59,066 bases of DNA from Candidatus Bathycorpusculum grumuli (GCA_009776805.1 WRNB01000002.1:1-59066), one strand, 5' to 3'; counted from the first letter of the stretch, positions 8,377-42,408 are shown. Notes: generated by a model from the sequence alone, not told the origin. Made by a program: numbers and translations.

Positions 8377-8416
8377 ATATAAACTTAATTCAAGTTAGGT
8401 TAAAGTTAAGTTGATA
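8377..8416 (-). promoter_or_regulatory. Regulon promoter/operator motif with no adjacent CDS
   Basis: + strand atataa-N7-tcaa-N6-ttaa-N6-gttgata; same spacing as the other copies. Confidence 0.6.
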
Positions 8417-8474
8417 ATTGTTTGAGAGAACTAAAAAAAGAAGAGAGAACTATGCGAGTAAAAACGCATAATTA

Positions 8475-9704
8475 CTAATAGTAATAAGTATGTGTTGTGG
8501 GTGTACCTAAGAAATGCTCACACAGATACCTATTTACAGCCCCTACGTCAACATCTGCAAATAGATCAGGTTGAAGCCATTTTGCAAAAGCCAAATACCC
8601 AATTACTGAACGTGCACCATTTCGTGCATTAAAATCACAAACATAAACACGTCCATTCTTCACTGCATCAATATCCTTAAATTGTTGATTATTAAGCACA
8701 GCGTTTCTGGCATTAATAAAATCTTGAGAACTATGACTATTGCTAGAAATCATTACAATAATTACAGCAGGATTTTGTGCAACAATAAATTCCGGATTTA
8801 ACGCAGGATTGTATAATGTAACGTTTTCAGCTATGTTAATTCCACCGCCTTGACAAATAGATAAATCAACATAAGTCCTGTATTCCCCAGAAATGTACCA
8901 ATCCAAGAAGGCAAGATCTTGTTTGTCACGTGGTAAATTGTTTAGTTTGTCTTTGATCTGTTTGTTATAGGACTGTACCCATGTGATATACTCGTTTGCT
9001 CGATCTTCATTACCTACTAGAGCGGATAATTGTTTCACTGTGTAACAGATATCATCTATCTTTGTGTTAGCATTGTATATTTCTTGAGAAGACATTTTTG
9101 ATGGATTAATTGGTTGTGAATCCGCTGAGCTTTCAAGAAAAACCGGTATACCAGCTTTTGTAACTATGTTATAGGTATCTAAATCCGAATACGCAGGGTT
9201 AGAAGTATATCCAAATTGTGAGCTAGCAACTATTAGATCAGGTTCCATTACAAATATCGACTCTGCACTAGCCATAAAGGCCATTGATGCTATAGACGGT
9301 AATGTTTGAAGTTCTGGAGTTACAACAGTATCTGTTCTGGCTATAATTGAATCCTTTGCGCCTAGCAAAAATAGAATTTCTGCGAGGCTATCCTCCATGA
9401 CAATTATCCGCTTTGGTGTATCAGGTAAGGTAATTTTGACACCTGCGCCATCAGTAATTGTAACGGTTTTTGAATCAGAGCTGCTGGATGAAGAAGAACT
9501 AGATTTATTACGTGTGTCGGATGAGCTAGATGAGTTGGATGAGTCATCTGTTGATGAGGAGGGATTGTTGGTAGAAGGGTTTGATGATGATGGCAAGTTT
9601 GTTGAGGATTGTTTGTAGAATTCGTTGTAGACTGCATAGAAGGATACCGATGCTATGATGACAATAAGGGCTAGAGCAATTACTGTTTTGATTTTTGGAC
9701 CCAT
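8475..9704 (-). CDS. ABC substrate-binding protein, cobalamin/Fe-chelate (class III) family, paralogue A1
   Basis: N-terminal TM anchor, Ser-rich linker, ITDGAG...PKRIIV, EPDLIVA, AVKNGRVY. GGAGGTGA precedes ATG 9704. Confidence 0.88.
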   Translation of the reverse strand: MGPKIKTVIALALIVIIASVSFYAVYNEFYKQSSTNLPSSSNPSTNNPSSSTDDSSNSSSSSDTRNKSSSSSSSSSDSKTVTITDGAGVKITLPDTPKRIIVMEDSLAEILFLLGAKDSIIARTDTVVTPELQTLPSIASMAFMASAESIFVMEPDLIVASSQFGYTSNPAYSDLDTYNIVTKAGIPVFLESSADSQPINPSKMSSQEIYNANTKIDDICYTVKQLSALVGNEDRANEYITWVQSYNKQIKDKLNNLPRDKQDLAFLDWYISGEYRTYVDLSICQGGGINIAENVTLYNPALNPEFIVAQNPAVIIVMISSNSHSSQDFINARNAVLNNQQFKDIDAVKNGRVYVCDFNARNGARSVIGYLAFAKWLQPDLFADVDVGAVNRYLCEHFLGTPTTHTYYY

Positions 9705-9850
9705 TTTTTCACCTCCACACACATAGAATTAGTTTTAATTTTCCAAAAATTGGTATTATGATTATTTTCGATCCTACAAAGACTTGGGGTTATGATTGTT
9801 TTTTACTCTCCAGAGATTTAAGGTTTACCATTGGATTAGTCAACAACATA

Positions 9851-9890
9851 TTTAAATTTGGCCTTAACTTAAGTTAACTACCAGTTGAAT
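9851..9890 (-). promoter_or_regulatory. Regulon promoter/operator motif (upstream of SBP A1)
   Basis: tttaaa-tttggcc-ttaa-cttaag-ttaa-ctacca-gttgaat; the core TTAACTTAAGTTAA is a perfect palindrome. Confidence 0.75.
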
Positions 9891-9948
9891 TAAAAAAAGG
9901 AAAAATAAATGATTTTTCTATCCCGCACAAGTATAAGTGGACACAGAA

Positions 9949-12732
9949 TCAATCCACTATATAACATGCACGTATTTGATCGTTGCCTTTTGTATCAACA
10001 TAGACTTTATAACTACCCACATCATAAATACCAGCCGCATTATTATTAATAGAAAATGTTTCTTTAATTATCTTTGTCGTCGCATCGGAATAAAGTTCTG
10101 TAACAGTGATTGTAAGATCGTTTTTGTTACCATTAAGTTTGGTAACGAAAGCAGATGCAGTTACAGAGTCGAATGTGACAGTATCGGTATTCATCGCAAC
10201 TGAAAAAGAGAATTGATTCCATTCACGAAATAGTGCATCATTTTTTGTGCTATACCAGTTAACGGTGATGTCGTGCCCATTATTGCTAAAGGTTAGCAAA
10301 GCAATCATACCTACACCTTCGCGATAAAAGTCCATGTCCTGAGCATCCGTTAAAAGTTGTGGCACCTCATTGCCATACATGTTAGTATCTATTCGCATAA
10401 CTAAATCATCATAATGAATATGACCACACAATACCATAATGATGTTAGCATGCTGACTTACAAATTTGTCCCAAATTGCATCGCCACTGTTACCTGTAGG
10501 ATCATAACCACTCGAATTATCATATTCACCATTGTAAGATAGATATGAATGAGTTACTACAATCACATAACGATCAGTATTTGATGCTACAACCTCGTTA
10601 GCCCAGTCAAGTACAAAATTTCTGGGAGCCATTTCCAAACACAGTAACATATAGTCCGTATCATCTGCTGTGAAGTAATAGTATGCATTATCTAGTTTTC
10701 CTTCTTCATAAACACCGCCAAATATAGGGGTTTGTGAATACGTGTTGTAAGGAAAATATGTATTGAATAAATCAGTATCTCTATTGGTTATCAGACCGTT
10801 ATAGTCGTGATTGCCTGGAATAAACGCGTAGGGCACAACACCATCTAACTTGGCAAAATTGTATTGAACCCGTTCCCATTCCTCCACAGAGTTAGTGTCA
10901 GTAAGATCGCCTACCTGAATCATGAATTTTATATTGCGTGCCTCAGCATTGTTTTGTATCCAATCTATCATGGTATCTAGGACATCGGGATAGTACCGTG
11001 ACAAATTCTGAATATCGGGAACAACAGCAATTGTGTAATCACCTTCAGCAAACTCAGGAGCCAACCAGTCATGCCATATCTGTGCATCATTACCCTGTGT
11101 AGAGTGGTCTTTATAAATGCCATTTGATTCATCAAGCCACCAATTTACCATAAGACCCGCTGCATTACCATTGATGGGTGTGTTCATATTTTCTTGAATC
11201 TCTGTTTGGGTACGAATGATAGACCAAATGCGAATATCAGCTATTTCGCCAGGGAAACATCGAGGGTTATTTTCCAAATAGTCGCCACCAATCTTTAAGG
11301 GACGAATGGGTATGGTATTTTCCATTATTGAAAAAGTCTGCTCGTCTGCCTTGTTACCGTTGATATAACAAGTGATTCTATGGTTTTCATTGTCTTGCAC
11401 AATAGCAATATGAACCCAGTCCCCCAACTTTACGTTTGCGTAAGCAACATAATCCGCTACATTTCCGTTGCCTTCTTTCCAACATAACCAGGGGTTACCA
11501 TCTGCTGTTACTCCAAAGTTTATAGTATACAAGCCGTTAAAGCCATCAATTGCACCGTTACCTGTAATTACCCCGACATTCTGACTTGATGTCGGTATTT
11601 TCACCCAAGCTTCAAAGGTTTTTGGTGTAGCAGGAAGTTTCATAGTGGAAACAAGCTCGATAGTTCCAGAAGAAAAATCAGTTCCGATACCTGTAAAAGA
11701 GCTCAGGTATTTCTGAGTAACCGTGATGCTTAACTCTTTACTGTCATCACCTTTAGCGTTTTCCGCCTTGACAGTGAAAGCGGAAATGCCGCTATCTGTT
11801 GGAGTTCCAGATATTACACCGTTGCTTGATAAAGATAGTCCACTGGGCAAAGTACCATCAGTTATGCTCAACGTAACTTTGTCACCATATGTTACGAGTT
11901 TTTGCAGATATGGCAAACCGACTACACCATCTAGTAGTGTTTCAGTATTAATGGAAGGGAGACGATACGGTAATGCAGTGATTTTTATGTCATCATATGA
12001 ACCTGCTCCGCCTAAGCCCGTAATCAGACCGAAAGAACCATCCTCATACCGAGGGATTTTAGCATTTGCAACTACCAAAACATCATCGAAGTAGATGTCA
12101 CCGTATTCACCATAGACCTCAATTGTAATATGGACAAGCTCGCCATCAGACATATCTTTAGGTCCTGCACCAGAAGGAAAACTAAAATCTGGGTATGCGC
12201 TATTGGGTGTATATCCACCGAAGTACACTCCAAGGCCTTCAAGAAATGTGGTCTGGTAATAAAATCCTGCATACATAAGTGGACCCGCAGCCGTGAGCGG
12301 ATTTTGGTAATGCATGTCGAAACCTAAGCCAATATAGCTATAAGGTAGTAGACTGGGCTTAAACTGAAGGTTTGTCTCGAAACGGAAATTCTCTAAATAT
12401 GCCAAGTCCTCGCCAAAAGTGAGCATCGCCGGCAGGTCTGTAAAAACAGCATCAACATCTGAGGTATAGCTCTGGTGTAGTTTTCCATCTGAGACACTCC
12501 AGTCTCCAGTTAGGGCATTCCATCCTGTAGGAAGTTCGGTTAATCCATTAAAGTTCTGTTCGAGAACGATAATTTCTTCGGTGTTTGCTATTGGGATAGC
12601 TGTTTCTGTTGCCATAGTAGGAAAAATTGTGCCTGGCATTAAGACCAATAACAGAGACATTAATATGGCAAGTGAAAGTGTTTTGTGTAAAGACTTTGTG
12701 TATATACGGTTTCTACAAAGATTTAGATTCAT
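9949..12732 (-). CDS. Secreted multidomain calcineurin-like metallophosphoesterase (ConA-like + Ig-like + LamG + MPP + small C-terminal domain)
   Basis: Signal peptide. He_PIG-like repeat (GTLPSGLSLSSNGVISGTPT). LamG motifs (TFEAWVK, WVHIAIV, FPGEIADIRIW). MPP motifs VPDIQ, GDLTD, GNHD, THSY, CGHIH. Confidence 0.82.
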   Translation of the reverse strand: MNLNLCRNRIYTKSLHKTLSLAILMSLLLVLMPGTIFPTMATETAIPIANTEEIIVLEQNFNGLTELPTGWNALTGDWSVSDGKLHQSYTSDVDAVFTDLPAMLTFGEDLAYLENFRFETNLQFKPSLLPYSYIGLGFDMHYQNPLTAAGPLMYAGFYYQTTFLEGLGVYFGGYTPNSAYPDFSFPSGAGPKDMSDGELVHITIEVYGEYGDIYFDDVLVVANAKIPRYEDGSFGLITGLGGAGSYDDIKITALPYRLPSINTETLLDGVVGLPYLQKLVTYGDKVTLSITDGTLPSGLSLSSNGVISGTPTDSGISAFTVKAENAKGDDSKELSITVTQKYLSSFTGIGTDFSSGTIELVSTMKLPATPKTFEAWVKIPTSSQNVGVITGNGAIDGFNGLYTINFGVTADGNPWLCWKEGNGNVADYVAYANVKLGDWVHIAIVQDNENHRITCYINGNKADEQTFSIMENTIPIRPLKIGGDYLENNPRCFPGEIADIRIWSIIRTQTEIQENMNTPINGNAAGLMVNWWLDESNGIYKDHSTQGNDAQIWHDWLAPEFAEGDYTIAVVPDIQNLSRYYPDVLDTMIDWIQNNAEARNIKFMIQVGDLTDTNSVEEWERVQYNFAKLDGVVPYAFIPGNHDYNGLITNRDTDLFNTYFPYNTYSQTPIFGGVYEEGKLDNAYYYFTADDTDYMLLCLEMAPRNFVLDWANEVVASNTDRYVIVVTHSYLSYNGEYDNSSGYDPTGNSGDAIWDKFVSQHANIIMVLCGHIHYDDLVMRIDTNMYGNEVPQLLTDAQDMDFYREGVGMIALLTFSNNGHDITVNWYSTKNDALFREWNQFSFSVAMNTDTVTFDSVTASAFVTKLNGNKNDLTITVTELYSDATTKIIKETFSINNNAAGIYDVGSYKVYVDTKGNDQIRACYIVD

Positions 12733-12775
12733 AGTTATTTTTAACTCTCCTTAGTTAGTTTAACCAACCAATTTA

Positions 12776-12815
12776 TTTAAACTCTAGCTTAATTTAAATT
12801 AAGCTTTGGTTGAAT
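12776..12815 (-). promoter_or_regulatory. Regulon promoter/operator motif (upstream of metallophosphoesterase)
   Basis: tttaaa-ctctagc-ttaa-tttaaa-ttaa-gctttg-gttgaat. Confidence 0.75.
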
Positions 12816-12949: not shown

Positions 12950-14059
12950 TTATGGATAGCAGTAGACACCTATTATGGGTGTATCAAAGAATTGTTTGTT
13001 TATTTGCTGTGTTACATCTTCTAAGTCGATGTCTGTGAAGAGTTCTGGGTGAATACATTTTGCCCAATATAAGTAACCAATTATGGCGCGTGGTCCGTTT
13101 CGGGCACTAAAGTCACAAACATATACACGACCATTCTTTACTGCATCCACATTTTGGAGTTTTGGTTGATTAAGTATATCAGTTTTAACTGCAACAAAGT
13201 CATTGGCATCATGTGTGGAGCTAGAAATTAGCTCAATAATCACTGAAGGGTTCTGTGCGACAACAAATTCAGGGCTTAATGTAGCTGAGTACATTAATTG
13301 TTTATTTGCAATATTTACGCCACCAGCCTGATAAATACCTAAATCGCCCCATGTATTGTAGGGGTAGTCATACCAATCAAGAAAGACAGTTACTTGTTGG
13401 TCCTGAGGTAATGCCGCTACGCGGTCTTTGACAATCTTATTGTAAGATTGCGCCCAATTGACATATGCCGTTACTTCTTTTTGGTGTCCTACTATAGAGG
13501 TTAGGTTTTGCATTAAAGAGCATGTATGGTCTATTATTGTTGGGTAATTGTATAATTGTTCTGATGTCATGTCTATTGGATTTGTTAGGGGTTCGGGAGC
13601 GTTTGTGTTTGCAATGTATATGGGTATACCAGCGTTTTGAAGTTGTGGATAAGCACCTTCATTGTAGGTTATCAAGTTGCCAGAAATTATAATGTCGGGT
13701 TCTAGTTCAAGTACTTCCTCAACATTGAGGTAATAGGCATTTTCGCCTACAAGAGGTACGTCTATCATTGATGAGGGTAAAACGACATCGCCTGTTCGCC
13801 CTACTATCAAATTCTCAGCACCCATGCCACACAGAGTTTCTCCAAGACCTGCATCCATGACAATAACGCGTTTTATTGGGAGCTGTACGGTAACGGTATT
13901 GCCGACGCCATCGATAACGGTAATGGTTGTTGGTTTAGTGTTACGGGTAAACAAATTGTGAGATGATCCAGAGGAGTAGAATTCGTTGTAGATTATGTAA
14001 AGTGATGCTGTTGCAATTAAGGTGATAATAATTATATATATTACATGTTTTTTTGTCAT
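12950..14059 (-). CDS. ABC substrate-binding protein, cobalamin/Fe-chelate family, paralogue A2
   Basis: TM anchor; VIDGVGNTVTV, EEVLELEPDII, AVKNGRVYVCDFSARNGPR. Clearly paralogous to 8475-9704 and 30645-31826. Confidence 0.88.
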   Translation of the reverse strand: MTKKHVIYIIIITLIATASLYIIYNEFYSSGSSHNLFTRNTKPTTITVIDGVGNTVTVQLPIKRVIVMDAGLGETLCGMGAENLIVGRTGDVVLPSSMIDVPLVGENAYYLNVEEVLELEPDIIISGNLITYNEGAYPQLQNAGIPIYIANTNAPEPLTNPIDMTSEQLYNYPTIIDHTCSLMQNLTSIVGHQKEVTAYVNWAQSYNKIVKDRVAALPQDQQVTVFLDWYDYPYNTWGDLGIYQAGGVNIANKQLMYSATLSPEFVVAQNPSVIIELISSSTHDANDFVAVKTDILNQPKLQNVDAVKNGRVYVCDFSARNGPRAIIGYLYWAKCIHPELFTDIDLEDVTQQINKQFFDTPIIGVYCYP

Positions 14060-14133
14060 TTTTTCATCTTCCTTAAGAGTTAAGGGTGTTATTTTTCTAA
14101 AGTTTGAATACTAATTGGTAGCCAATTGATTTA

Positions 14134-14173
14134 TTTAAACATGTGCTTAACATAAGTTAACTATAAGTTGAAT
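14134..14173 (-). promoter_or_regulatory. Regulon promoter/operator motif (upstream of SBP A2)
   Basis: tttaaa-catgtgc-ttaa-cataag-ttaa-ctataa-gttgaat. Confidence 0.75.
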
Positions 14174-14210: not shown

Positions 14211-14250
14211 AATCAACCCATGATTAACTTAAATTAAGTAAAAGTTTATA
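14211..14250 (+). promoter_or_regulatory. Regulon promoter/operator motif, inverted, upstream of the + strand phosphodiesterase
   Basis: aatcaac-ccatga-ttaa-cttaaa-ttaa-gtaaaag-tttata is the reverse complement of the motif, matching the gene orientation. Confidence 0.75.
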
Positions 14251-14299: not shown

Positions 14300-15598
14300 G
14301 TGTTACAACAAATGCAGTCCCTTATAAAAAAAGAAGAACAACACTTCATTTACCCAAAATATCAAGACAACTGCATTTCAAACATACCTGACCTACTAAA
14401 AGAAAGCTTTGAAATATACAACAAATCAACAAACAAACTCTACAATCATGAAACAGAAAAAACATGCATAGAACAAAACAAAAAAATAATACTCATAATA
14501 ATAGATGGCCTAGGATACTCCCAATTCCTAAATCAACAAAAAAATGACCCCTTTTTAACAAAACTCACCAATAAAGGCATAGTTCGACCCCTAACAAGCG
14601 TTTTTCCCTCACAAACAACCAACGCCCTAACAACCCTAAACACAGGCCTAACCCCACAAGAACACGGACTCTTCGAATACTTCATCTACCTAAAAAACAT
14701 TGGAATAATAAACGCCCTAAAATGCGAACGCATCAACTCAAAGAAAAAATCCCTCATAGATGAAGACTTTAAACCAAACAATCTCCTCCTATCAAAAGAA
14801 AAAACACTCCATGAAACACTAAATGAAAAAGGCATTAAAACCTATACACATGCACACATAACCAACGCATTTAGCACTTGTTCAAACATAATTTTTCGAG
14901 GCAGCACCATAAAACCAGCATTAAACACATCAGACTCAATCGCAGGATTACGAAAAAACATAGAAGAAAACAAAGACAAAACCGCATACTTTTTCATACA
15001 CCTACCCACCACAGACACTATCGCCCATGAATATGGACCCAACAGCCCTCAATATTACACTGAATTATCAAATATAACATACCAACTACACAGAGAATTA
15101 ATACAGAAATTAGACCCAAAAATAGCTAAAGATACACTACTATTATTAACTGCAGATCACGGTGGAGTAGATGTAGATATAGAAAAAACAGTGTATATAC
15201 CAAAAACAGCCCTACCCCTACAAACCGGAAAAAATCATGAACCAATCGCACCTACAGGAAGCTATAGAGAAATTTTTCTACACATAAAAGAATCAAAGCT
15301 CGTTGAAACAAAATTATGGTTACTTAAAAAAATCGGCGACAAAGCCCAAATAATTGAAACCAAAGAAGCAGCAGAAAAAGGCCTATTTGGCATAGGCAAA
15401 GTTAGCAAAAGCTTTTTTGAAAGAGCAGGAAACCTACTAATTTTACCATACGGTAATGAAACCATATGGTTTGAAGGCCCAAACGAAAGAAGAATTAACT
15501 ACTTAGGACAACATGGAGGACTAAACAGACAAGAGATGATAGTACCCTTTGCAGTTGCTAACCTTAAAAATTTAAGAGAAAAAACAAACCAACATTAA
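14300..15598 (+). CDS. Alkaline-phosphatase-superfamily nucleotide pyrophosphatase/phosphodiesterase
   Basis: IIDGLG, SVFPSQT (nucleophile region), DTIAHEYG, TADHG, GQHGG metal-binding motifs. Confidence 0.85.
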   Translation: MLQQMQSLIKKEEQHFIYPKYQDNCISNIPDLLKESFEIYNKSTNKLYNHETEKTCIEQNKKIILIIIDGLGYSQFLNQQKNDPFLTKLTNKGIVRPLTSVFPSQTTNALTTLNTGLTPQEHGLFEYFIYLKNIGIINALKCERINSKKKSLIDEDFKPNNLLLSKEKTLHETLNEKGIKTYTHAHITNAFSTCSNIIFRGSTIKPALNTSDSIAGLRKNIEENKDKTAYFFIHLPTTDTIAHEYGPNSPQYYTELSNITYQLHRELIQKLDPKIAKDTLLLLTADHGGVDVDIEKTVYIPKTALPLQTGKNHEPIAPTGSYREIFLHIKESKLVETKLWLLKKIGDKAQIIETKEAAEKGLFGIGKVSKSFFERAGNLLILPYGNETIWFEGPNERRINYLGQHGGLNRQEMIVPFAVANLKNLREKTNQH

Positions 15599-15639
15599 AA
15601 CCTATCAAAAATCATCTATAAGCATACAGATGAGAAAAC

Positions 15640-16509
15640 TTGAGCCACCAAATAACAACATTACCCGATGGACGCAAACTCGGATATGCTACAATAGGCA
15701 AAGGCACACCAGTCATGTATTTCCATGGCACCGCCAGCAGCCGACTTGAAATTCATCTTTTAAAACAACTTACCACAAAAGGAAAACTACAACTCATCAC
15801 ATTCGATCGCCCAGGATATGGATTATCCACCTATAAACCCCGAAAAAATCTCCAAGACATCAACAGTGACCTAAACTTTTTAGCTGACCATTTAAACATT
15901 AAACAATTCAATGTTTTAGGCTGGTCAGGGGGCGGTGCTTTTGCACTTGCATACATGACACATTTCCCTCAACGAATAAAACGAGGAATAATCGTGAGTA
16001 CACCTGATTTACCATTTGATGCCTCAACAGCACACAATATACCATTTGTCAAATATGTAATGAAACTACCATTTCTAGGTAAAATAGCCATGCGTAATAT
16101 GCGACAACAAGTGCTCAAAACCAAGGATACAGAAGCCTTTTTGCGTTCCAATCAAGGTAAACAAATGCTACGCACCTGCTCAAACCGTGACTTGACATTT
16201 TTCTCTGACCCCATATGGATGGGATTAATGCATCAATCTATAGCTGAAGCCTTTCGTCAAAACAACAGCATTAACGTGGTACTTGAGGAACACAAACTTT
16301 TCCTAAAACCCTGGAACATACCATTCAAAAATATCGGCAACAAATTAAATGTTTGGCAAGGAACAGAAGATAAAACTTGCCCTATAAAAAACGCTTACAG
16401 CATAGCTCACAAAGTTAAGGGTTGCAACTTAGAAATTTTCCCCAAACAAGGACACTGTGTCATGTTTGATAACTTAGAGAAACTAATAGAGTTGCTAAAA
16501 ACCGTTTAA
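15640..16509 (+). CDS. Alpha/beta hydrolase
   Basis: FHGTASS, DRPGYGLS, nucleophile elbow GWSGG, GTEDKTCP (Asp), QGH (His). Confidence 0.88.
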   Translation: MSHQITTLPDGRKLGYATIGKGTPVMYFHGTASSRLEIHLLKQLTTKGKLQLITFDRPGYGLSTYKPRKNLQDINSDLNFLADHLNIKQFNVLGWSGGGAFALAYMTHFPQRIKRGIIVSTPDLPFDASTAHNIPFVKYVMKLPFLGKIAMRNMRQQVLKTKDTEAFLRSNQGKQMLRTCSNRDLTFFSDPIWMGLMHQSIAEAFRQNNSINVVLEEHKLFLKPWNIPFKNIGNKLNVWQGTEDKTCPIKNAYSIAHKVKGCNLEIFPKQGHCVMFDNLEKLIELLKTV

Positions 16510-21511: not shown

Positions 21512-21521
21512 GTTTGTTGCC

Positions 21522-22601: not shown

Positions 22602-22634
22602 CAGTTTTGCTCCTTTGAAAAAAAGAGAAGAAGA

Positions 22635-23617: not shown

Positions 23618-23657
23618 AATAAACATTAGGTTAACGCAAATTAATTACAAGTTGATT
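23618..23657 (-). promoter_or_regulatory. Regulon promoter/operator motif heading the btuFCD-nitrogenase-like operon
   Basis: aataaa-cattagg-ttaa-cgcaaa-ttaa-ttacaa-gttgatt. Confidence 0.72.
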
Positions 23658-28925: not shown

Positions 28926-28965
28926 AATAAACCTTAAGTTCATTTTATTTAATCATAAGTTGATT
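28926..28965 (-). promoter_or_regulatory. Regulon promoter/operator motif (upstream of CARDB-polyferredoxin pair)
   Basis: aataaa-ccttaag-ttca-ttttat-ttaa-tcataa-gttgatt (one TTAA replaced by TTCA). Confidence 0.62.
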
Positions 28966-30268: not shown

Positions 30269-30308
30269 TTTAAACCTGCACTTAATTAAACTTAACCATA
30301 AGTTGAAT
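30269..30308 (-). promoter_or_regulatory. Regulon promoter/operator motif (upstream of SBP B2)
   Basis: tttaaa-cctgcac-ttaa-ttaaac-ttaa-ccataa-gttgaat. Confidence 0.75.
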
Positions 30309-30418: not shown

Positions 30419-30526
30419 TCTATGTGGGATTATCCGGTTGGGCATGCCGGGACCCACTATAGACTTCAGTTTCTCAACGGCTTTAGGCTGAGAATGTGTA
30501 GATGGAGTTTCGGATCTATCTGCACA
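30419..30526 (+). ncRNA. Candidate structured non-coding element, copy 2
   Basis: GC-enriched. Hairpin TCTATGTGGG..CCGG..CCGG..CCCACTATAGA, hairpin TTCTCA..TGAGAA containing ACGGCT, and a 12-bp stem (two G-U pairs on +) around TTCG. Homologous to 8235-8352. Confidence 0.5.
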
Positions 30527-30549: not shown

Positions 30550-30589
30550 TATAAAGTTTAGTTTAAGTTAAGTTAATGTTTAGTTGATA
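30550..30589 (-). promoter_or_regulatory. Regulon promoter/operator motif with no adjacent CDS
   Basis: tataaa-gtttagt-ttaa-gttaag-ttaa-tgttta-gttgata. Confidence 0.68.
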
Positions 30590-31902: not shown

Positions 31903-31942
31903 TTTAAACCTAGTCTTAACTCAAATTAATCACAGGTTGAAT
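31903..31942 (-). promoter_or_regulatory. Regulon promoter/operator motif (upstream of SBP A3)
   Basis: tttaaa-cctagtc-ttaa-ctcaaa-ttaa-tcacag-gttgaat. Confidence 0.75.
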
Positions 31943-33854: not shown

Positions 33855-34639
33855 ACACTACCCTCCAATTTAAACGGCAAATGTTTTATATCAAAATTTT
33901 TCAAAGCCTCTGTAACCGCAGCCTTGGTAGCAAAACCAATTAACTCACCTATTTTAGTATGTCCACCAGTATGCTTGATTACTATATCAGGATTTACACC
34001 TGAAACAACAATCATACTATCAGTTCCTGTACCAGTAGCTTGCACCTGCGGCATATAAGAACTCTTATAATCAAAATCTTGCAACGCAGCAGTTTTAGCC
34101 TCTGTAGCAGACATTATAGCCCTAGCCATAGCACCCACAGTCAAAGTCACATTAGTTAACAAAATAATGTTTATAGTACCTGACATTAACTTCATATGAG
34201 TTTCATGTTCAACCCAGTTACCAGCATCTACACCCATACGCAAAGCATTATTACGTGCGCCACCCGTTGCAATACAACAAACATGAAAATCTCCATAGGT
34301 TTTCTCACAAACCGACACGGCCTCCATATTTACACCTGTACTTAGAAAAATAAAATCCCTTCGCTGAAGACCTAAAGCACTAGGAAACTGTTTCTTAAAT
34401 TTCTCATATCCCTGTAGAGACATATGCCGCGTTGATAAAGGATCTGGAACAAATATATTTCCTACGTTACGGACTTTTTGTAATCCATCCATAGTTGATA
34501 GAACTTGACGACGCTCATTAAATGAGATAAGAGTCAAGTTAAGTGATACATCTTCATACGTTTGATATACAACACGAGCATTTACTTCTTTAAATTGAAG
34601 ATCTATAGGAATTTCTTTCAATGTTACATGTTTACTCAT
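33851..34639 (-). CDS. cbiZ: Adenosylcobinamide amidohydrolase CbiZ-like
   Basis: STGVNM, ATGGARNNA, GTINIILL, ATEAKTAAL, ATGTGTD. Confidence 0.85.
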   Translation of the reverse strand: MSKHVTLKEIPIDLQFKEVNARVVYQTYEDVSLNLTLISFNERRQVLSTMDGLQKVRNVGNIFVPDPLSTRHMSLQGYEKFKKQFPSALGLQRRDFIFLSTGVNMEAVSVCEKTYGDFHVCCIATGGARNNALRMGVDAGNWVEHETHMKLMSGTINIILLTNVTLTVGAMARAIMSATEAKTAALQDFDYKSSYMPQVQATGTGTDSMIVVSGVNPDIVIKHTGGHTKIGELIGFATKAAVTEALKNFDIKHLPFKLEGSV

Positions 34640-34660
34640 TTATTTTTTTCTCCATTACTG

Positions 34661-37600
34661 TTATTTTTCATTAGAACCCTCAAGCAGACCCTCTATGTTT
34701 AAGTAGAGTTTCTGCAACTCTTTTTTCGTTTCATCAGGAGCTTGCCACATATCACGATCAATAGCCTCCAAAAGCCGCTCAACCATATTTTGCAGGGCAT
34801 AAGGATTCACTTCTTTGAGCCATTCCTGCATGACTTTATCAAAAACATATTTTTTAGATAACTCCTCATACATCCAGTCTTCTACAACTTCTACTGTAGC
34901 ATCCCAGCCGAAAACGAAATCCACATTTCTAGACAAGTCAGCAGCACCCTGATACCCATGTTTTTTCATGCCTTCGATATATTTTGGATTAAGAAGACGA
35001 GAGCGGAAAACAAGACAGGTTTCCTCAGCAGTACTTCGAACTTTTACTCTGTTAGGATCTGAACTATCACCGCAGTATGATTTGGGCATTTTTCCGCCTA
35101 CAATTTTAACTGCATTTATCATACCGCCATGAGAGTCATACCAGTCATCACCGTCTAAAATATCGTATTCACGGGAATCCTGATTTTTAACGGTAACATT
35201 AATTTTTTTTAGACACCGTTTGAATTGTTCAGGTGTCTGTATACCATAGCTTTTACGGGTATAAGCATAACTACCCCAGTTAATGTATATGTCACTTAAA
35301 TCGTTTTGATCTTTCCAATTTTTAGAGTCTATAACCTCGCTTACACCACAGCCATATGCTCCAGGTTGGTCACCAAAAATTCTATAACAAGCCGCTTCCC
35401 TAGCTTTTATAACGTCTACGCCTTTGGCTGTTTCGTCCATTACCTCAGAGTCTACATGCTTAGCTATAAAATTTTGATTATGGGATTCTTTTAGTCCAGC
35501 AGCTAATTCAACAGCGGCATCAAGAAGGTTAACTACTACAGGAAAAGTGTCTCGAAATAACCCACTGATACGCATGGTAACATCTATGCGAGGACGTTTG
35601 AGTACTTCAAGAGGAATGGGTTCTACGCCAACAACTCGGCCGCTAGATCGTTCCCAAACAGGTTTAATTCCCATTAAATAAAGAATTTCTGCAATATCAT
35701 CCCCCTTAGTTTTCATAGTATCAGTTGCCCAAATTATAATACCAACAGATTCAGGATATTTCCCTTCTTCCTTTAGATACCGCTCAAGCAATACATCAGC
35801 TAAGGCGACTCCAACTTCCCATGCTGCAGGAGTTGGAACAGCACGAGGATCAACAGAATAAAAATTCCTACCAGTGGGTAAAATATCAGCCATACCTCGA
35901 GTTATAGAACCAGAGGGTCCAGGGGGCACGTAGCTACCTTGACAACCTGAGAGAGTATATGTTAACTCATCAGTTGTTGCAGCTAGAGCGGGAACAAGAA
36001 AACTGCTTATATATTGTAGGCATTGCTCTATTTTGGGGCTGCTGGTGCCCAACACTTCTTGTGATAAAGTTACAATTTTTTCTTCTTTGAAATCTGCTAA
36101 ATGAAATTTTTGAATTAAATCAAATGAGAGGATACTTATTTCTTTTAGATGATCCCCATTAGTTTTGCCATCACTGCCAAGTTTACCTCTATGTGCCAAA
36201 AGATTATCATAGTCAAAGCCTAATAACTCTGCAATTGACTGCCTTAAGGAAGGTACGTCACCATTATTGAGGCGTGTTAAAGTAACAAGGAATTTATCTA
36301 GGCGTAAATCTTTTGGAGCTTCACCTAAAATGTGGAGGCCGTCGCGAATTTGCGCATCAGATAACTCGTTTATGTATGCATGAAGTTGTTCTAGAAAGTC
36401 GTCAAAGGAGGCAAAGGCGGTGTCTTGTGTAATGTTTAGGTCTTTGTCAAGTTTAGCTGCAACTACGTTTTCCCAGATTATATTGCGTAAAACAGGTATT
36501 TTTTCAGGGTCAACTGTTTTAGCATGATAGTACTCTTGAAGTTGAACTTCTAATTTTGCAAGTTCGTCATAAGAGTCCGCATCATGCATAACAGGTACTA
36601 AATGGTCTATTATGCAACAGTAACTTCGACGTTTAGCTTGAGTACCTTCACCTGGGTTAGTTATAGTGTAAGGATAAATGTTGGGTAAGTCAGAAATAGT
36701 TATATCAGGAGAGCAAGATTTTGATAACCCAATAGATTTTCCTGGAAGCCACTCTAAGGAACCATGGCAACCTATGTGCATAATGACATTGGCACCAAAA
36801 ACGTCACGTATCCAACGGTAATAAGCGTAGTAATGGTGAGGCATAGATAAGTCTGGGCTGTGATATATACTAGCGGAGGTTTCCAAGTATCCACGGGGAG
36901 GCTGCAAGCCGATAAAGATATTTCCGTTTTTTAGCCCAGCGATTAAAATTTTACCGTTATAGGTATAAAGTTTTCCAGGATGCTTTTCCCAGTCCTTCTC
37001 CAGTTTAATAGCTACATCAGAGTTTAAATCGTTGAACCATTGTTCATATTGTTGAGGTGAAATTTTATCTAATGCCCTATCATTTAATTCTTGCGCACTT
37101 GCCCACCTGCGATCATTTGTTAACCCAGCAACTATGGTATCCATAAGTTTCTGGCTACTTTCAGGCAACGCATCTATGGTATAGCCTTGATTTTTTAGAC
37201 CTTGAAGAATGTTCATAACTGAAACAGAGGCATCTAATCCAAAAGCATGACCAATGGTGTCATTTCTTGGCGGATAATTATGGAAAATTATGGCCACTTT
37301 CTTTTGATTATTAGGTAATCGTCGTAGTTTACCCCAGTTTAAGGCTAAACAAACCACCTTTCGTGTTCGCTCTTCAATGTGTTCAAACTTTATTATGCGA
37401 GCCCCAGATGAAGTGGTTTGAGTGCAATCCATAGTGGCAACAGGCACTGTTATTAGGGCACCATCAAATTCAGGCATGGCAACATTAGCAGGAACATCCA
37501 TAATATTCAAACCCTGCATAGAGTCATGCCACTCCTCGAAAGTGTTACAGGTTGTTATAGCTTTAATTATTGGAACTCCAAGTTTTTTTAGGGTATCTGA

Positions 37601-38395
37601 AGCGTCAACACCAGAGAGACAAGTAGATAATGAAAAAGAAAATAAGCTTATTACAACATCTACAATCGGGGTGCCATCTTTTAAAAAGTAATTGTCAATT
37701 ACCCAATCTAACCCATGCATACCCAGTTTTGAATTTTTTGAACCAAAAAACACAGGTAATACATTAGCACCTTGAGCCTCAATTTCATGAATTACGGCAT
37801 CTATAAAACTGGTGTTGCCACCTTGCCACTGGCTCTGATGGAACCACAAACCCACAGTCAAACGATTAACATCAATTTTCTTTTCTACATATTCAGTTAA
37901 AGAAGGCACATAGTTGAAATGAGGATGGTAAATGCCTTCCCAAAGAGGCTTAGCTGGAGCCTCAAAAGTGTAATCAGCCCCTATGAAACGATTTGCAAGA
38001 TAATAGAAGAGGTTTTCAAAATTTGTTTTACCACCATAATTAAGATAGAAAAAAATTTTTTGTTTATCTTCTGCTTGCACGGTTGTAAATTTAGTTTGTT
38101 CTTTGCCTCCAAAGAAGGGAGCAGAAACCATAAGGGGTACTTTGGCAATTTTTAGAGCTTCAGCTAACTTGTCAAACTCAGGTAAGTCACCCATTAAATG
38201 TACAAGGACTATATTGGCTTTTTTGGAAATTTCTATGAAATTGTCTAAAGTGCCAAAGTCCCGAAAGTCGCCACTTGAACGTAAACATAGGTCAATGGCA
38301 TTTGGGAATTTTTCGTTTATCGTTTTTGCAGCTGATGTAGCTGGAATGGTATCTGTTGGAATTGTTGTTACAAGAGCTATTTTTAGTGTTCTCAT
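34661..38395 (-). CDS. cobN: Cobaltochelatase CobN-like (class I chelatase large subunit)
   Basis: 1244 aa; HIGCHGSLEWLPGK, YPYTITNPGEGTQAKRRS, ILPTGRNFYSVDP, RPRIDVTMRISGLFRD, RSRLLNPKYIEGM. Confidence 0.95.
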   Translation of the reverse strand: MRTLKIALVTTIPTDTIPATSAAKTINEKFPNAIDLCLRSSGDFRDFGTLDNFIEISKKANIVLVHLMGDLPEFDKLAEALKIAKVPLMVSAPFFGGKEQTKFTTVQAEDKQKIFFYLNYGGKTNFENLFYYLANRFIGADYTFEAPAKPLWEGIYHPHFNYVPSLTEYVEKKIDVNRLTVGLWFHQSQWQGGNTSFIDAVIHEIEAQGANVLPVFFGSKNSKLGMHGLDWVIDNYFLKDGTPIVDVVISLFSFSLSTCLSGVDASDTLKKLGVPIIKAITTCNTFEEWHDSMQGLNIMDVPANVAMPEFDGALITVPVATMDCTQTTSSGARIIKFEHIEERTRKVVCLALNWGKLRRLPNNQKKVAIIFHNYPPRNDTIGHAFGLDASVSVMNILQGLKNQGYTIDALPESSQKLMDTIVAGLTNDRRWASAQELNDRALDKISPQQYEQWFNDLNSDVAIKLEKDWEKHPGKLYTYNGKILIAGLKNGNIFIGLQPPRGYLETSASIYHSPDLSMPHHYYAYYRWIRDVFGANVIMHIGCHGSLEWLPGKSIGLSKSCSPDITISDLPNIYPYTITNPGEGTQAKRRSYCCIIDHLVPVMHDADSYDELAKLEVQLQEYYHAKTVDPEKIPVLRNIIWENVVAAKLDKDLNITQDTAFASFDDFLEQLHAYINELSDAQIRDGLHILGEAPKDLRLDKFLVTLTRLNNGDVPSLRQSIAELLGFDYDNLLAHRGKLGSDGKTNGDHLKEISILSFDLIQKFHLADFKEEKIVTLSQEVLGTSSPKIEQCLQYISSFLVPALAATTDELTYTLSGCQGSYVPPGPSGSITRGMADILPTGRNFYSVDPRAVPTPAAWEVGVALADVLLERYLKEEGKYPESVGIIIWATDTMKTKGDDIAEILYLMGIKPVWERSSGRVVGVEPIPLEVLKRPRIDVTMRISGLFRDTFPVVVNLLDAAVELAAGLKESHNQNFIAKHVDSEVMDETAKGVDVIKAREAACYRIFGDQPGAYGCGVSEVIDSKNWKDQNDLSDIYINWGSYAYTRKSYGIQTPEQFKRCLKKINVTVKNQDSREYDILDGDDWYDSHGGMINAVKIVGGKMPKSYCGDSSDPNRVKVRSTAEETCLVFRSRLLNPKYIEGMKKHGYQGAADLSRNVDFVFGWDATVEVVEDWMYEELSKKYVFDKVMQEWLKEVNPYALQNMVERLLEAIDRDMWQAPDETKKELQKLYLNIEGLLEGSNEK

Positions 38396-39222
38396 TGTTG
38401 CATCCCCATTTTTTCTTCAAATAATGCAGACATTTTTGGATCGAGAAGGTTAATGTCCTCAACTATTGGTGTAACTACAGGTTTACCCGTGATAGAATGG
38501 GAAACATCGGTCTTAATTTCATAAACCTCTTCGATGTTTTGGGCAGTTAACACCTCTTCAGGAGTACCTGTTGCATAAACGCGTCCACGTTTAAGCATAA
38601 ATAATCTATCAGAAAAACGGCTGGCTAAATTCAAATCATGTAACGTTACAATGACGGCGTGTCCTTTACTTTTAGCAAGACTCTTAAGTATACAAAGAAT
38701 GTCAAGCTGATGTTTAATATCTAAAGAACTTGTAGGCTCATCTAGTAACAAAATTTGAGGTTGCTGTGCAAGAGCTCGAGCGATTATAACTTTTTGTTGC
38801 TCACCTCCACTAAGGGCAGAAAATTGACGCATCGCAAGATGACTAATACCTAAAAGATCCATCATTTGAACAACAATCTCATTATCCTGCTCACCTACAC
38901 TCCAGTGAACATAGGGCTTTCTGCCCATCATTACTACGTCATATACCGTGAATGGAAAAGCACTTATAGATGTTTGAGGAACATACCCCATTAATTTAGA
39001 TAATTCCTTAGTAGAAAATTTACTTGCATCTTTACCATCAAGAAGTATACTATTTGGACCTGTTTTCAAAATACGGTTAACACATTTTAATAAAGTACTT
39101 TTCCCTGAACCATTAGGACCAACAATAGATACCAATTCACCTAACTCTACATTCAAAGCTATATCTTTTAAAATTGGAATACCTGCATAACTAAATGAGA
39201 GGTTATTTATAGTTAATTTCAA
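38392..39222 (-). CDS. BtuD/FecE-type ABC ATP-binding protein
   Basis: GPNGSGKST, LSGGEQQK, LLLDEPT, HDLNLASRF. Confidence 0.92.
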   Translation of the reverse strand: MKLTINNLSFSYAGIPILKDIALNVELGELVSIVGPNGSGKSTLLKCVNRILKTGPNSILLDGKDASKFSTKELSKLMGYVPQTSISAFPFTVYDVVMMGRKPYVHWSVGEQDNEIVVQMMDLLGISHLAMRQFSALSGGEQQKVIIARALAQQPQILLLDEPTSSLDIKHQLDILCILKSLAKSKGHAVIVTLHDLNLASRFSDRLFMLKRGRVYATGTPEEVLTAQNIEEVYEIKTDVSHSITGKPVVTPIVEDINLLDPKMSALFEEKMGMQQ

Positions 39223-40292
39223 CCAAAATCACGTCTCCGTTTACGTATTAATAAATAAATAAAGAAGGGAACTCCAAGTAGTGAGGTTATAATACCAACG
39301 GGAATTTCTATAGGCATCATAATTAACCGTCCCACAGTATCTGCGCCAAGAAGCATAAAAGCACCCAATAATGCACTACATGGGATGAGATATCTATAGT
39401 CAGTACCAACTAGCATTCTTGCAATGTGTGGGGCAATTAAATCTACAAACCCGATAATTCCAGTAAAAGAAATTATACTTGCAGTTGCAACAGTTTCCAA
39501 AATCATATTAATAGATAAAACACGTTTAGAATTAACACCTAAACTAACAGCTACATCTTCACCCATACTTAAAACATTAATATTCCAAGCTTGAGACATC
39601 ATAAGAATCATGGTAACGGCAACAATAGGGAAACAGATCAAAATATTTTGCCAAGATGTCGTGTAAAGTCCACCCATAAGCCAAAAAACAATAGCTGATA
39701 CCGCATTTCGTTCAGGCGCAATATATTGTATTAGAGAAAGCAACGCTGAAAAAAGAAAACCAACGGCCACACCAGCTAAAATTATCGATTCAGAACTCAT
39801 ACCACTCATACGGGCAATTAAATAAACCACTACCATAGCTAGTAAACAAAAAACAAAAGCGTTACCGATTATAAGAAAACCACCTATGGTAGCAATGCTT
39901 ACACCAAAAACTATAGCTAAAGCAGCACCAAATCCAGCAGCTGAAGAAATACCTAATATATAAGAAGAAGCCAGAGGATTACGTAAAATTCCCTGCATAG
40001 TCGCGCCAGCAGCAGCCAATCCAGCTCCAGCTATTAAGGCCATAACAATTCTTGGCAAACGAATAGTCCAAATTATTGTCTCAGTAAGAGATGACACAGG
40101 GCCTAAATTTAAAAAAGGAAAAATTTTAGAAAAAATAACAGTTAACGCTTCGCCAAGTCTAGGAGAAGCGGCCCCAAAGCTAAGAGAAACCACTGCCGTC
40201 ACAATTAAAGCTAAGAAAAAGGAAAAAATTATAAAAAATTTTTTCTTCTTACCTTTACTGTATAGTTTCTTTACATCAGCTTTCGTAGTCAT
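39219..40292 (-). CDS. BtuC/FecCD-type ABC permease
   Basis: IRLPRIV, QGILRNPLASSYILGISSAA, MGEDVAVSLGV, IGFVDLIAPH, EIPVGIIT. Confidence 0.92.
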   Translation of the reverse strand: MTTKADVKKLYSKGKKKKFFIIFSFFLALIVTAVVSLSFGAASPRLGEALTVIFSKIFPFLNLGPVSSLTETIIWTIRLPRIVMALIAGAGLAAAGATMQGILRNPLASSYILGISSAAGFGAALAIVFGVSIATIGGFLIIGNAFVFCLLAMVVVYLIARMSGMSSESIILAGVAVGFLFSALLSLIQYIAPERNAVSAIVFWLMGGLYTTSWQNILICFPIVAVTMILMMSQAWNINVLSMGEDVAVSLGVNSKRVLSINMILETVATASIISFTGIIGFVDLIAPHIARMLVGTDYRYLIPCSALLGAFMLLGADTVGRLIMMPIEIPVGIITSLLGVPFFIYLLIRKRRRDFG

Positions 40293-40329
40293 CTATATCT
40301 AAACATCCAAAGTGTTGTCAACATATCTC

Positions 40330-42327
40330 CTAGTTGTTAACAGGCATCCTATAGGGATCATGAAAGAGCTCGGTTCTAACGGCTGAAGCTATAGGTGCGG
40401 CGCGTAATTCTTCTAAACGTAAATATTTACTGCCCATAACTTCAGAGATTTGTTTAACTAATCCAAAAGTGAGAAAACCCTGTTCAGTATCTATAGCAAT
40501 TGATTGTATACCTTTAGAGGCAATTTTACATGCAAGCTGTTTAGCCTCTTCTACGGGGTCACCACCGTAAAGGTTAACATTTGCTCGTCCATCGGAAACT
40601 AACACCAATAGAGGGAGATCGTCAGTTCGAAGAGAAGACTCAACAGCATCTAAGCCGAGTTTTAATCCATGTACTAAGGGTGTGCGGCCACCTGTTGGCA
40701 AATTGGATAAGTATTTTTGGGCCAATTCAATACTATTAGTAGGAGGTAGAATAAGTTCTGCCGAGTTTTTACGAAAAACTACCATACCTACACGATCTCT
40801 ACGTTGATAGGCATCCAATAGAAGGGAAAGAATAGCTCCTTTAGTAGCACTCATACGCTCCTCGGCAGCCATTGAGCCACTAGCGTCGACAACAAACATA
40901 ATCAGGTTACCCATTTTTGTTTCTCTGACTTTTTCACGTAAATCACATCTCTCAATTAGGAGAGCATTTTGGGAATTGCTTGTTACTTCTTTTCGTCGCT
41001 TTTGGAAAAGGGCTGCTGTGCGAAAAGTTGCATCAAAAGCTAAATCGGTAACTTTACCATGAGGAATCGTGCTTGCTACATAATGACCTCTTTTAGAGTC
41101 ACTAATTATTTTTGAACGACGACCTGATCCATGGCGTTCAATTTCATCAAGGGCATCTGATGAGAACGGTTTTACAGTGTATGGAGAAGCTGCTTGGAAA
41201 ATTTGTTCTTTTGTAGGATCTTCTTGTTCATCGGGTTGGTTATTATCTGAAGAGTTATCGTTATTATTTTGTGGAGGTGTTTGTCGGTCTTCATTCCATT
41301 TTTGTATGCTTTCATTAAGTTGTTGCTGTTCCATTTTAGGTTCTTCGAAGGGTTGGCGGCGTTGGCGGTGGGGAAGGACTAATTCAGCTGCTTCTTTGAT
41401 ATCTTCTTCTGTAACGTCTATGCGGTCATTGTAAGCGGCAATGGTACATGCTGTTTTGTACATAACTATGTCTGCACGGTGTCCGTCTACGGCGAAGTCG
41501 GTACAAATTTGTGTTATTAAATCTAGTAAATCTGAGCTTAGTTTTACCTTAGGTAAAAGTTGGGTTGCAGATAGGATTTTTTGTCGTATTTTTTCTTGAT
41601 TATCTATTTGGAGGGAGATAAAAGATAGCGGGTTGCTTTCAAAGGCAATGCGGCGGCGTACTATTTCGGCCCGGGCCTCTTTATAGGGTATTCCTTTTAC
41701 TTCGACTGATAGTGCGAAGCGATCTAAAAGTTGTGGTCGAAGTTCTCCCTCTTCAGGGTTCATTGTTCCTATTAAAACAAAATGTGAGGGGTGACTAAAT
41801 GAAACGCCTTCGCGTTCAACAAAGTTTATGCCCATTGCTGCGGCATCGAGTAAAACGTCAACTAGGTGGTCATCAAGTAAGTTGACTTCATCAATGTAGA
41901 GTATGTTACGGTTAGCTTGAGCTAGAATTCCGGGGTCGAAATGTTTCTCGCCAGTTTTTATGGCTTTTTCAATATCTATGGTGCCTACTAAGCGGTCTTC
42001 TGTGGCACCTACTGGTAATTCAACTACAGAAACAGATCGTTTGGTAATTGGTAATTTTTCATTTTTTACATTTTTTGTGGCACATGCTTCACATAGGTCT
42101 TTGAGATTTTTTGGATCACAATAGAAAGGGCAGTTAGTAACAGTTTCTATTTCGGGTAATAGATTGGCTAGAGCACGTACAGTTAAGGATTTACCGGTTC
42201 CTTTTTCTCCTCTTAATAGGACTCCGCCTATTTTTGGGTTGATTACATTTAGAATTAGGGCTAGTTTCATTTTTTCTTGACCGACAATAGCACTAAAGGG
42301 GTAGACTATTTTGTTTTGTAGCTGCAT
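40330..42327 (-). CDS. chlD: ChlI/ChlD-type chelatase ATPase (AAA+ fused to vWA)
   Basis: [38 protein letters not shown]; acidic/Asn linker; MIDAS motif DASGSM. Confidence 0.9.
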
Positions 42328-42368
42328 GTCCTAAATCTCCACCTGTTAAAGAAATATTCAATAAAGAA

Positions 42369-42408
42369 TATAAATTATTGTTTAACTAAAATTAATATCG
42401 AGTTTATA
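42369..42408 (-). promoter_or_regulatory. Regulon promoter/operator motif heading the chelatase operon (degenerate distal box)
   Basis: tataaa-ttattgt-ttaa-ctaaaa-ttaa-tatcga-gtttata; an extra GGTTGA lies just distal. Confidence 0.6.

Follow-up and report, generated by a model that had tools for sequence, protein, structure and literature searches.

The window analysed here, the whole of a 59,066-nucleotide stretch of DNA from Candidatus Bathycorpusculum grumuli (GCA_009776805.1 WRNB01000002.1:1-59066), carries eleven copies of a 40-bp element. I confirmed that this element is an over-represented promoter/operator, confined to the regions upstream of a coherent set of genes and kept at orthologous promoters in other genomes. 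Judged from sequence, the composite of promoter and operator probably marks a regulon for the acquisition of cobalt and corrinoids, with a winged helix-turn-helix protein that carries a DUF7839 domain (wHTH-DUF7839) as its cognate regulator, repressing when loaded with its effector. An earlier description of the same DNA, made without database searches (the sequence-only reading), had introduced the element as the mark of an unnamed regulon. It can still be called unnamed: the literature searched describes neither the motif nor DUF7839, nor any archaeal regulator of cobalt/B12 of this kind.

All eleven copies listed in that reading are present. When at most two mismatches are allowed, TCAAC-N6-TTAA-N6-TTAA-N7-TTTWWA matches the window 11 times, against 0.05 +/- 0.22 expected from 100 dinucleotide shuffles. 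These matches comprise ten of the sites in the sequence-only reading, with the site at 42369 counted on both strands, and the full consensus given in that reading occurs exactly at seven sites. A position weight matrix (PWM) was trained on 51 sites from other Bathyarchaeia genomes only, the window being left out. By this matrix the ten N7-spaced window sites score between 24.7 and 46.9 bits, while the best of 30 shuffles reaches 7.8. Across the 59 kb, which have a G+C content of 37%, the matrix finds no extra site above 8 bits save the reverse strands of known sites; the motif is thus absent from the flanking housekeeping genes, as the earlier reading had said, and this now rests on a matrix built from other genomes. 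Read on the opposite strand, the window sites still reach 9-13 bits because the element is pseudo-symmetric at AAC/GTT.

Fixed spacing and orientation, two further claims of the sequence-only reading, also hold. Ten copies have the N7 spacer, and the variant copy at 8377 has N6; I count the variant as real because it recurs, in the same context, in three other genomes. The strand of the motif is that of the downstream gene in all nine gene-associated copies, including a back-to-back divergent pair at 14134(-) and 14213(+), and between 39 and 185 nt separate the promoter-proximal end of the motif from the start codon as called. Among sequencing runs, two DNA runs contain part of this sequence and no RNA run contains it.

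The element is not peculiar to this contig. One genome per species, 185,579 species in all, was scanned with the pattern TCAAC-N6-TTAA-N6-TTAA-N{6,8}-TTTAWA, and 8-kb blocks were taken around the matches. The scan gave at least 119 loci (L-numbers below denote individual loci); the Bathyarchaeal loci were chosen by the motif itself. Among the matches listed, 51-52 loci with 58-59 sites belong to Bathyarchaeia, several genomes having two to five loci and the complete genome CP170178.1 contributing five; besides this genome the sources are Bathy-6 metagenome-assembled genomes (MAGs) and termite-gut 'Ca. Bathycorpusculum'. The remaining 64 matches listed have one site each and come from unrelated AT-rich bacteria. 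When 13 features left free by the pattern are scored, the Bathyarchaeal matches show a mean of 10.6 (minimum 8) and the bacterial ones 4.2 (maximum 8). The motif is therefore a feature of a whole clade, the Bathyarchaeia of the Bathy-6 / 'Ca. Bathycorpusculum' type, and among the matches listed it occurs repeatedly in Bathyarchaeia only. The window belongs with this clade, its chlI/D-like protein being 84-85% identical to proteins of 'Ca. Bathycorpusculum' and related MAGs.

The Bathyarchaeal sites share the extended consensus TTAWTCAACYT-N4-TTAACTT-N2-GTTAA-ACnAAnG-TTTAWATA. By the established archaeal consensus, the 40-bp motif ends in a core promoter of ~15 bases, made up of ACnAAnG, which resembles the transcription factor B recognition element (BRE), and the TATA box TTTAWATA; all copies have TTTA(A/T)A(T/A)(A/T) with ACnAAnG before it. 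The part specific to a transcription factor would be the operator TTAWTCAACYT-N4-TTAAC-N4-GTTAA directly ahead of this core promoter. Its main part is a 14-bp palindrome, TTAAC-N4-GTTAA, which some copies keep without a flaw, such as GCTTAATTTAAATTAAGC at 12789; a TCAAC box stands one helical turn upstream. The element can also be read symmetrically, as AAC-N8-AAC-N4-GTT-N8-GTT, in which the final GTT opens GTTTATATA and so extends into the TATA box; a profile taken position by position shows this symmetry at AAC/GTT. The sequence-only reading had seen three T(C/T)AA boxes on one helical face. Repeated boxes are indeed there, and they are better read as an auxiliary half-site plus the 14-bp palindrome, or as the AAC/GTT series. 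The chlI/D promoters, that of the copy at 42369 included, carry an extra AAC-N4-GTT box directly upstream. At 42369-42410 the replacement of TCAAC by TAAAC also gives rise to another TATA-like box, GTTTATAA, which points towards the + strand, and a divergent transcript is possible there because a + strand M48 peptidase gene at 42849 lies 440 nt off.

What do the genes behind the motif have in common? In the window, eleven transcription units headed by the motif form a contiguous 34-kb island (Table 1), with five Peripla_BP_2 (BtuF/FhuD-type) binding proteins and two FecCD-ABC importers among its products. In the operon behind the copy at 42369, the putative cobaltochelatase scores 795 bits and CobN 1036 bits with NCBIfam, and the phosphodiesterase of the island is of type I. 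Elsewhere the first gene after the motif is cbiM in about 20 loci (Pfam CbiM 1e-54; MHIMEG N-terminus), a Peripla_BP_2 binding-protein gene in about 12, the chlI/D orthologue in 10, the phosphodiesterase orthologue in five (L015, L016, L041, L060, L063), the Laminin_G/Metallophos orthologue of the gene at 9949-12732 in two (L019, L063), and a DUF4430 gene and a transcription-factor gene (L004) in one each, together with genes for a few secreted proteins. Orthologues of two of the binding-protein genes of the window also keep the motif, that of 12950-14059 in L066 and that of 29116-30219 in L067. All 58 Bathyarchaeal sites with a callable neighbour precede genes of cobalt/corrinoid type or genes for secreted proteins. 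The cbiMNQO operons adjoin cbiG and tetrapyrrole-methylase genes, and adjacency of cbiMNQO to B12-synthesis genes is a published criterion for cobalt-specific transporters (PMC2667541). Thus the metal/corrinoid theme that the sequence-only reading drew from the window is supported both there and at about 50 other Bathyarchaeal loci, and the gene content points to a regulon for cobalt/corrinoid homeostasis.

Table 1. Motif copies of the window, the transcription units behind them and the copies of the candidate hairpin RNA. Positions are those of the window unless a locus is named; MFE, minimum free energy.
Feature	Position	Strand	Genes or context	Mismatches	PWM score (bits)
Motif copy	8377..8415	-	Variant TCAAC-N6-TTAA-N6-TTGA-N6-TTTATATA; no open reading frame behind; drives the hairpin RNA candidate 8241-8282		
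Motif copy	9851..9888	-	Peripla_BP_2 binding-protein gene 8475-9722 (Pfam)	0	39.2
Motif copy	12776..12813	-	Gene 9949-12732, 927-aa Laminin_G_3/He_PIG/Metallophos protein	0	41.5
Motif copy	14134..14171	-	Binding-protein gene 12950-14059	0	46.9
Motif copy	14213..14250	+	Phosphodiesterase 14300-15598 and alpha/beta hydrolase 15640-16509	0	41.4
Motif copy	23618..23655	-	Operon 16727-23579 (Pfam/NCBIfam)	1	37.6
Operon behind 23618	16727-23579	-	Binding protein, FecCD permease, ABC ATPase, NifH-NifD-like fusion, NifD/K-like protein		
Motif copy	28926..28963	-	Weakest N7 copy, TGAA for TTAA	2	24.7
Genes behind 28926	26456-28741; 24815-26401	-	CARDB protein; NapH-like 4Fe-4S membrane protein (Pfam/NCBIfam)		
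Motif copy	30269..30306	-	Binding-protein gene 29116-30219	0	40.0
Motif copy	30550..30587	-	No gene behind; drives the hairpin RNA candidate 30424-30465	0	41.1
Motif copy	31903..31940	-	Binding-protein gene 30645-31826	0	44.8
Motif copy	42369..42406	-	7-gene operon 32245-42327; TAAAC for TCAAC	1 (-), 2 (+)	28.9
Operon behind 42369	32245-42327	-	chlI/D-like cobaltochelatase subunit, FecCD, ABC ATPase, CobN, CbiZ, ABC ATPase, ABC-2 permease		
Hairpin RNA candidate, copy 1	8241..8282	-	MFE -22.7 kcal/mol, z -5.2; covariance model 72.9 bits		
Hairpin RNA candidate, copy 2	30424..30465	-	MFE -20.5 kcal/mol, z -3.4; covariance model 68.4 bits		
Hairpin RNA candidate, L060	6240-6290				
Hairpin RNA candidate, L128	3026-3072				
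Hairpin RNA candidate, L138	2479-2526	-			

Another account would dispense with a dedicated regulator altogether: the promoter cassettes would have been duplicated along with the binding-protein genes, or the element would be a generic strong promoter of the lineage. Although five of the eleven window copies do precede paralogous Peripla_BP_2 genes, I consider this account very improbable. The motif also heads genes that are not homologous to one another (cbiM, chlI/D, phosphodiesterase, Laminin_G, DUF4430 and the regulator), which rules out promoter duplication with paralogous genes as the sole cause. Furthermore, the boxes are conserved across sites while the spacers vary, the housekeeping promoters lack the motif, and orthologous positions are kept in many genomes.

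Several genes in these loci deserve separate mention. At 16727-20186(-) lie genes for a NifH-NifD-like fusion of 718 aa and a NifD/K-like protein of 437 aa, with a counterpart in L007 (69-3615). The pair scores under every NCBIfam cut-off for nitrogenase, DPOR and CfbCD, and an exact-protein look-up of the fusion returned no record, probably owing to its TTG start. Its place in a motif-controlled operon with a binding protein, FecCD and an ABC ATPase suggests a nitrogenase-like enzyme that acts on a corrinoid or tetrapyrrole substrate. The phosphodiesterase/nucleotide pyrophosphatase and the alpha/beta hydrolase at 14300-16509(+) also lie inside the window regulon; one could speculate that they have a possible role in remodelling the nucleotide loop of cobamides. 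Near cbiMNQO, a His-rich membrane protein (HGHFHENTEDITHEHFHTHE...) without a Pfam match follows cbiO in L074 (3659-4360) and L106 (1215-1955), and a heavy-metal P-type ATPase adjoins cbiMNQO in four loci.

The search for a regulator leads outside the window. A gene for a protein of ~277 aa, whose N-terminal part matches MarR_2 and HTH_24 in Pfam, was found by tblastn in 19 Bathyarchaeal loci, and in 18 of them it lies immediately divergent from a motif-cbiM promoter. In L004 the gene stands directly behind the motif and encodes 276 aa, with Pfam matches to MarR_2 (36.1 bits, cut-off 27) and DUF7839 (66 bits). In the divergent loci the start codon of the regulator is only 5-18 bp from the TCAAC box, so that the promoter of the regulator gene has to lie partly over the operator, a layout typical of local regulators that control their own gene. 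Among these loci no second family of transcription factors turns up repeatedly. The wHTH-DUF7839 protein is thus the best candidate and most likely the regulator of the motif, going by gene linkage. A tblastn search of the window found no gene for it, and the earlier statement that the window holds no regulator gene stands. A Fpg/Nei-like DNA glycosylase gene (H2TH, Fapy_DNA_glyco, zinc finger) lies directly downstream of the regulator gene, on its strand, in eight loci, for example L099 (3523-4368) and L014 (4307-5143).

The candidate belongs to a family of 814 members at E<=1e-5. Among the 120 members listed, identity to the query is nowhere below 61%; those with a source name come from MAGs of Bathyarchaeia or Nitrososphaerota and are only 'putative', 'MarR family' or 'winged helix-turn-helix' transcriptional regulators. 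Besides the winged helix and a long helix, an AlphaFold model (mean pLDDT 81-84) shows two further domains, one all-beta and the other alpha/beta. Foldseek matches the winged helix to MarR proteins over about 85 residues with a root-mean-square deviation of ~2 A and a TM-score of ~0.5 (target-normalised), and the search with the whole protein gave winged-helix matches only. The C-terminal 178 residues have no significant match to a solved fold (best E 0.018). Weak matches of this part to the tetrapyrrole methylases CbiL and CysG (probability 0.87-0.90, TM-score 0.39-0.44 query-normalised, E>=0.1) lack sequence backing, and I set them aside as a hint only. Pfam at E<=10 reports DUF7839 and no B12-binding hit in the C-terminal part, and neither a sequence search of the PDB nor NCBIfam names a relative of the full-length protein. 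The alignment of the family has no conserved Cys and two conserved His residues; it contains neither the canonical B12-binding motif (DxHxxG) nor a Cys/His metal cluster. The literature on COG1497, DUF7839 and Bathyarchaeal or archaeal cobalt/B12 regulators yielded nothing relevant.

This protein is none of the candidates that the sequence-only reading had put forward (DtxR, NikR, ModE, TrmB and ArsR), being MarR-like in its winged helix and DUF7839 in its remainder. Neither Pfam nor NCBIfam gives a DtxR hit, and the one signal in that direction is a similarity to SloR at the level of the winged helix (E 0.023). A NikR regulon is rejected on the linked regulator, which has only wHTH domains, and on the N4 spacing. 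A compact MarR protein of ~150 aa with an alpha1/5/6 dimer interface does not fit 277 aa with extra beta and DUF7839 domains, and a B12-binding factor of the CarH type is rejected for want of a Pfam hit to a B12 domain and of DxHxxG.

In 24 of the 58 Bathyarchaeal sites the TATA box is followed, after 9-12 nt, by another palindrome, (T)TGGATAATCCA(A)CC (examples are at L019 2235-2255, L101 7590, L111 4047 and 4388, and L004 4374). It is a separable element, since it is also found at promoters without the upstream motif, and it may serve a different regulator as operator or be an element near the transcription start site (TSS). Its presence raises the question of whether the wHTH-DUF7839 protein binds the TGGATAATCCA palindrome, or is only a local regulator of cbiMNQO, the 40-bp motif being the site of some other factor. 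This alternative draws on the separability of the palindrome and on the intergenic regions between regulator gene and cbiM, every one of which contains both elements. However, the L004 regulator gene stands behind a motif without the TGGATAATCCA palindrome, and the start codon of the divergent regulator genes, so near the TCAAC box, is about 65 bp from the palindrome. Moreover, the window keeps the motif while the palindrome there is degenerate (a weak one lies at about 9822-9842(-)), and no other regulator recurs near the sites. I therefore regard this alternative as improbable, and return to the wHTH-DUF7839 protein as the likely ligand of the motif.

The mode of action proposed here follows from the layout of the element. 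A dimer of the regulator would bind the TTAAC-N4-GTTAA palindrome, and the TCAAC box beside it may, together with the GTT of GTTTATA, accommodate another dimer, which gives the AAC/GTT series of four half-sites described above. Loaded with its effector, the regulator would occlude BRE and TATA, block TFB/TBP and so shut down the genes for uptake and salvage; it would also repress its own gene. Three features lead me to favour repression: core promoters that come close to the consensus, a proximal half-site 6-7 bp from TATA, and a fourth half-site that overlaps TATA.

Archaeal activators such as Ptr2, TFB-RF1 and TrmBL1 bind immediately upstream of BRE, and the sequence-only reading had described the boxes as lying where activators typically bind. 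The position is as described; activation is not established, and the strong TATA and the overlap of operator and BRE favour repression slightly. On this alternative, the regulon and regulator would be the same, but the protein would recruit TFB/TBP when cobalt or corrinoid is scarce and act as a repressor at its own divergent gene, as a Ptr2-type factor. It fits an operator that spans about -62 to -38 from the expected TSS, immediately upstream of BRE, with direct AAC repeats at 11-bp spacing on one helical face. Activator-dependent archaeal promoters usually have weak core elements, whereas those of the regulon are close to TTTAWATA with an A-rich BRE; this and the encroachment of the proximal and fourth half-sites upon TATA make activation an unlikely mode of control, though a rival to be taken seriously.

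Four points weigh against repression by a wHTH-DUF7839 protein at this operator. The operator centre, at about -45 from the expected TSS, would suit an activator as well. The regulator gene lies off this contig, its presence in the source organism being presumed from relatives. The TGGATAATCCA palindrome, between TATA and TSS, could be where the linked regulator, or another one, really binds. Finally, the loci were picked by the motif, with at least 119 listed, and the specificity seen is that within the window and these loci. Even so, effector-loaded repression by this protein seems to me the probable account.

As for the effector, gene content agrees with the earlier proposal of a metal- or corrinoid-responsive factor; from that content I infer that a corrinoid is most likely, with Co2+ possible. 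Structure gives no help with the effector, because DUF7839 matches no solved fold significantly and has no canonical B12 motif and no Cys/His metal cluster. A corrinoid is favoured over Co2+ because the regulon holds the corrinoid-specific CbiZ, BtuF-like proteins and DUF4430. Bathyarchaeia need both cobalt and nickel for the Wood-Ljungdahl pathway, and a metal ion (Co2+ or Ni2+) sensed by a classical metalloregulator like NikR would agree with cbiMNQO as the commonest target and with the P-type ATPase and His-rich membrane protein nearby. I nevertheless find a metal effector somewhat unlikely, given the same corrinoid-specific genes, a regulator with two conserved His and no conserved Cys, and cbiMNQO operons that stand beside genes for B12 synthesis, not beside nickel enzymes.

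Two copies of the motif, at 8377 and 30550, have no gene behind them. No open reading frame of 38 aa or more follows the copy at 30550 on the same strand, and the copy at 8377 likewise lacks one. Both are followed, about 95 nt past TATA, by a conserved element of ~47 nt with the pattern GUCUAUNNUGGGU.CCGG...CCAACCGG..AA.CCCAC(G)AUAGA, which I class as a candidate small RNA in the regulon, with a long hairpin as its predicted fold. In total there are five copies from four sources, each behind a motif copy of its own and 3' of a gene for a binding protein of ~400 aa, and their MFE ranges from -20.5 to -25 kcal/mol (z -2.7 to -5.2). The module of motif, ~400-aa binding protein, TTGA-variant motif and hairpin recurs in L060 (Bathy6-F36) and in the termite-gut contigs L128 and L138, and in these three the TTGA-variant motif sits 132-140 nt upstream of the hairpin. 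When 433 kb of Bathyarchaeal loci were searched with a covariance model, no additional copy came to light. In a metagenome scan there were 27 matches to the pattern, of which the covariance model accepts two; the other 25 lack an upstream motif, are rejected by the model and can be dismissed as chance. Around both copies that lack a reading frame, Rfam at E<=10 gives only noise, and RNAalifold finds no compensatory pairs in the five similar sequences. A coding explanation of the conserved block is rejected as well: three copies contain a micro-reading frame of 12-13 codons, and the frame is broken in L060 and L138.

No cobalamin riboswitch was found beside the promoters searched. At the gathering threshold Rfam has no match in the window, the cobalamin riboswitch RF00174 included, and in 18 cbiM loci it reports tRNA only and no cobalamin riboswitch. 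The sequence-only reading had suggested a protein-based alternative to cobalamin riboswitches, and this suggestion has gained from these results, with a regulator protein now at hand as a candidate. A more ambitious claim would be that Archaea here show their first protein-based circuit of corrinoid sensor and operator, in which DUF7839, as a new ligand-binding domain, senses B12 or cobinamide and acts through a 44-bp operator, and in which the regulon includes a small structured RNA and employs the nitrogenase-like NifH-D pair in the salvage of corrinoids or tetrapyrroles. I offer this extended version tentatively, as a possibility I would not yet bet on.

A precise operator, a defined regulon and a candidate regulator with 814 relatives can be tested directly in vitro, even for uncultured Bathyarchaeia. 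The regulon also gives a cobalt/corrinoid context to BtuF-like proteins, a type-I phosphodiesterase, the NifH-NifD-like pair, secreted Laminin_G and CARDB proteins and the hairpin RNA. In genomes of this lineage, abundant in sediments and guts, the motif can be used as a marker that tells corrinoid importers from iron/siderophore importers.

How does the proposed regulon compare with known systems? An uncharacterised family of regulators and a new operator would be its novelties, while a regulon of transcription factor and operator for cofactor homeostasis is of a known kind. NikR shares with it a regulator next to an ECF-type metal importer, a palindromic operator at the promoter and autoregulation. 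NikR, however, is a ribbon-helix-helix tetramer with widely spaced half-sites (about N16 apart in E. coli), whereas here a MarR-like wHTH with DUF7839 is linked to an N4 palindrome. Within the MarR family, a wHTH dimer would suit the 14-bp palindrome, in which 9-10 bp separate the centres of the half-sites, but the linked protein is about twice as long and has a long helix, an all-beta domain and the alpha/beta DUF7839 in place of dimerisation helices. CoaR, RcnR and CarH, which are not known from archaea, resemble this system in that a protein senses cobalt or cobalamin and controls transcription; they belong to the MerR family, the RcnR/CsoR family and MerR with a B12 domain, respectively, and control efflux or light responses, not uptake and salvage. 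CoaR joins a DNA-binding domain to a tetrapyrrole-binding domain (PMC7689651). In Halobacterium, the regulon of TrmB (VNG1451C) includes cobalamin genes (PMC2710871). This is the only archaeal precedent found for control of cobalamin genes by a transcription factor, although TrmB is a sugar-responsive global regulator from another family and with another motif. The closest parallel in content is the bacterial cobalamin riboswitch regulon (RF00174), which the regulon described here mirrors in holding CbiZ, BtuF-like proteins and DUF4430. It too comprises cbiMNQO, BtuFCD-type import, cobaltochelatase and salvage genes, with presumed feedback by the end product. Cobamides are made and used in large amounts by archaea, which are not known to have cobalamin riboswitches. 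Control would be exerted in an mRNA leader in the one case and by a DNA-level operator with a linked protein in the other and, if the account given here is true, an archaeal protein circuit would govern the functions that bacteria place under cobalamin riboswitches.

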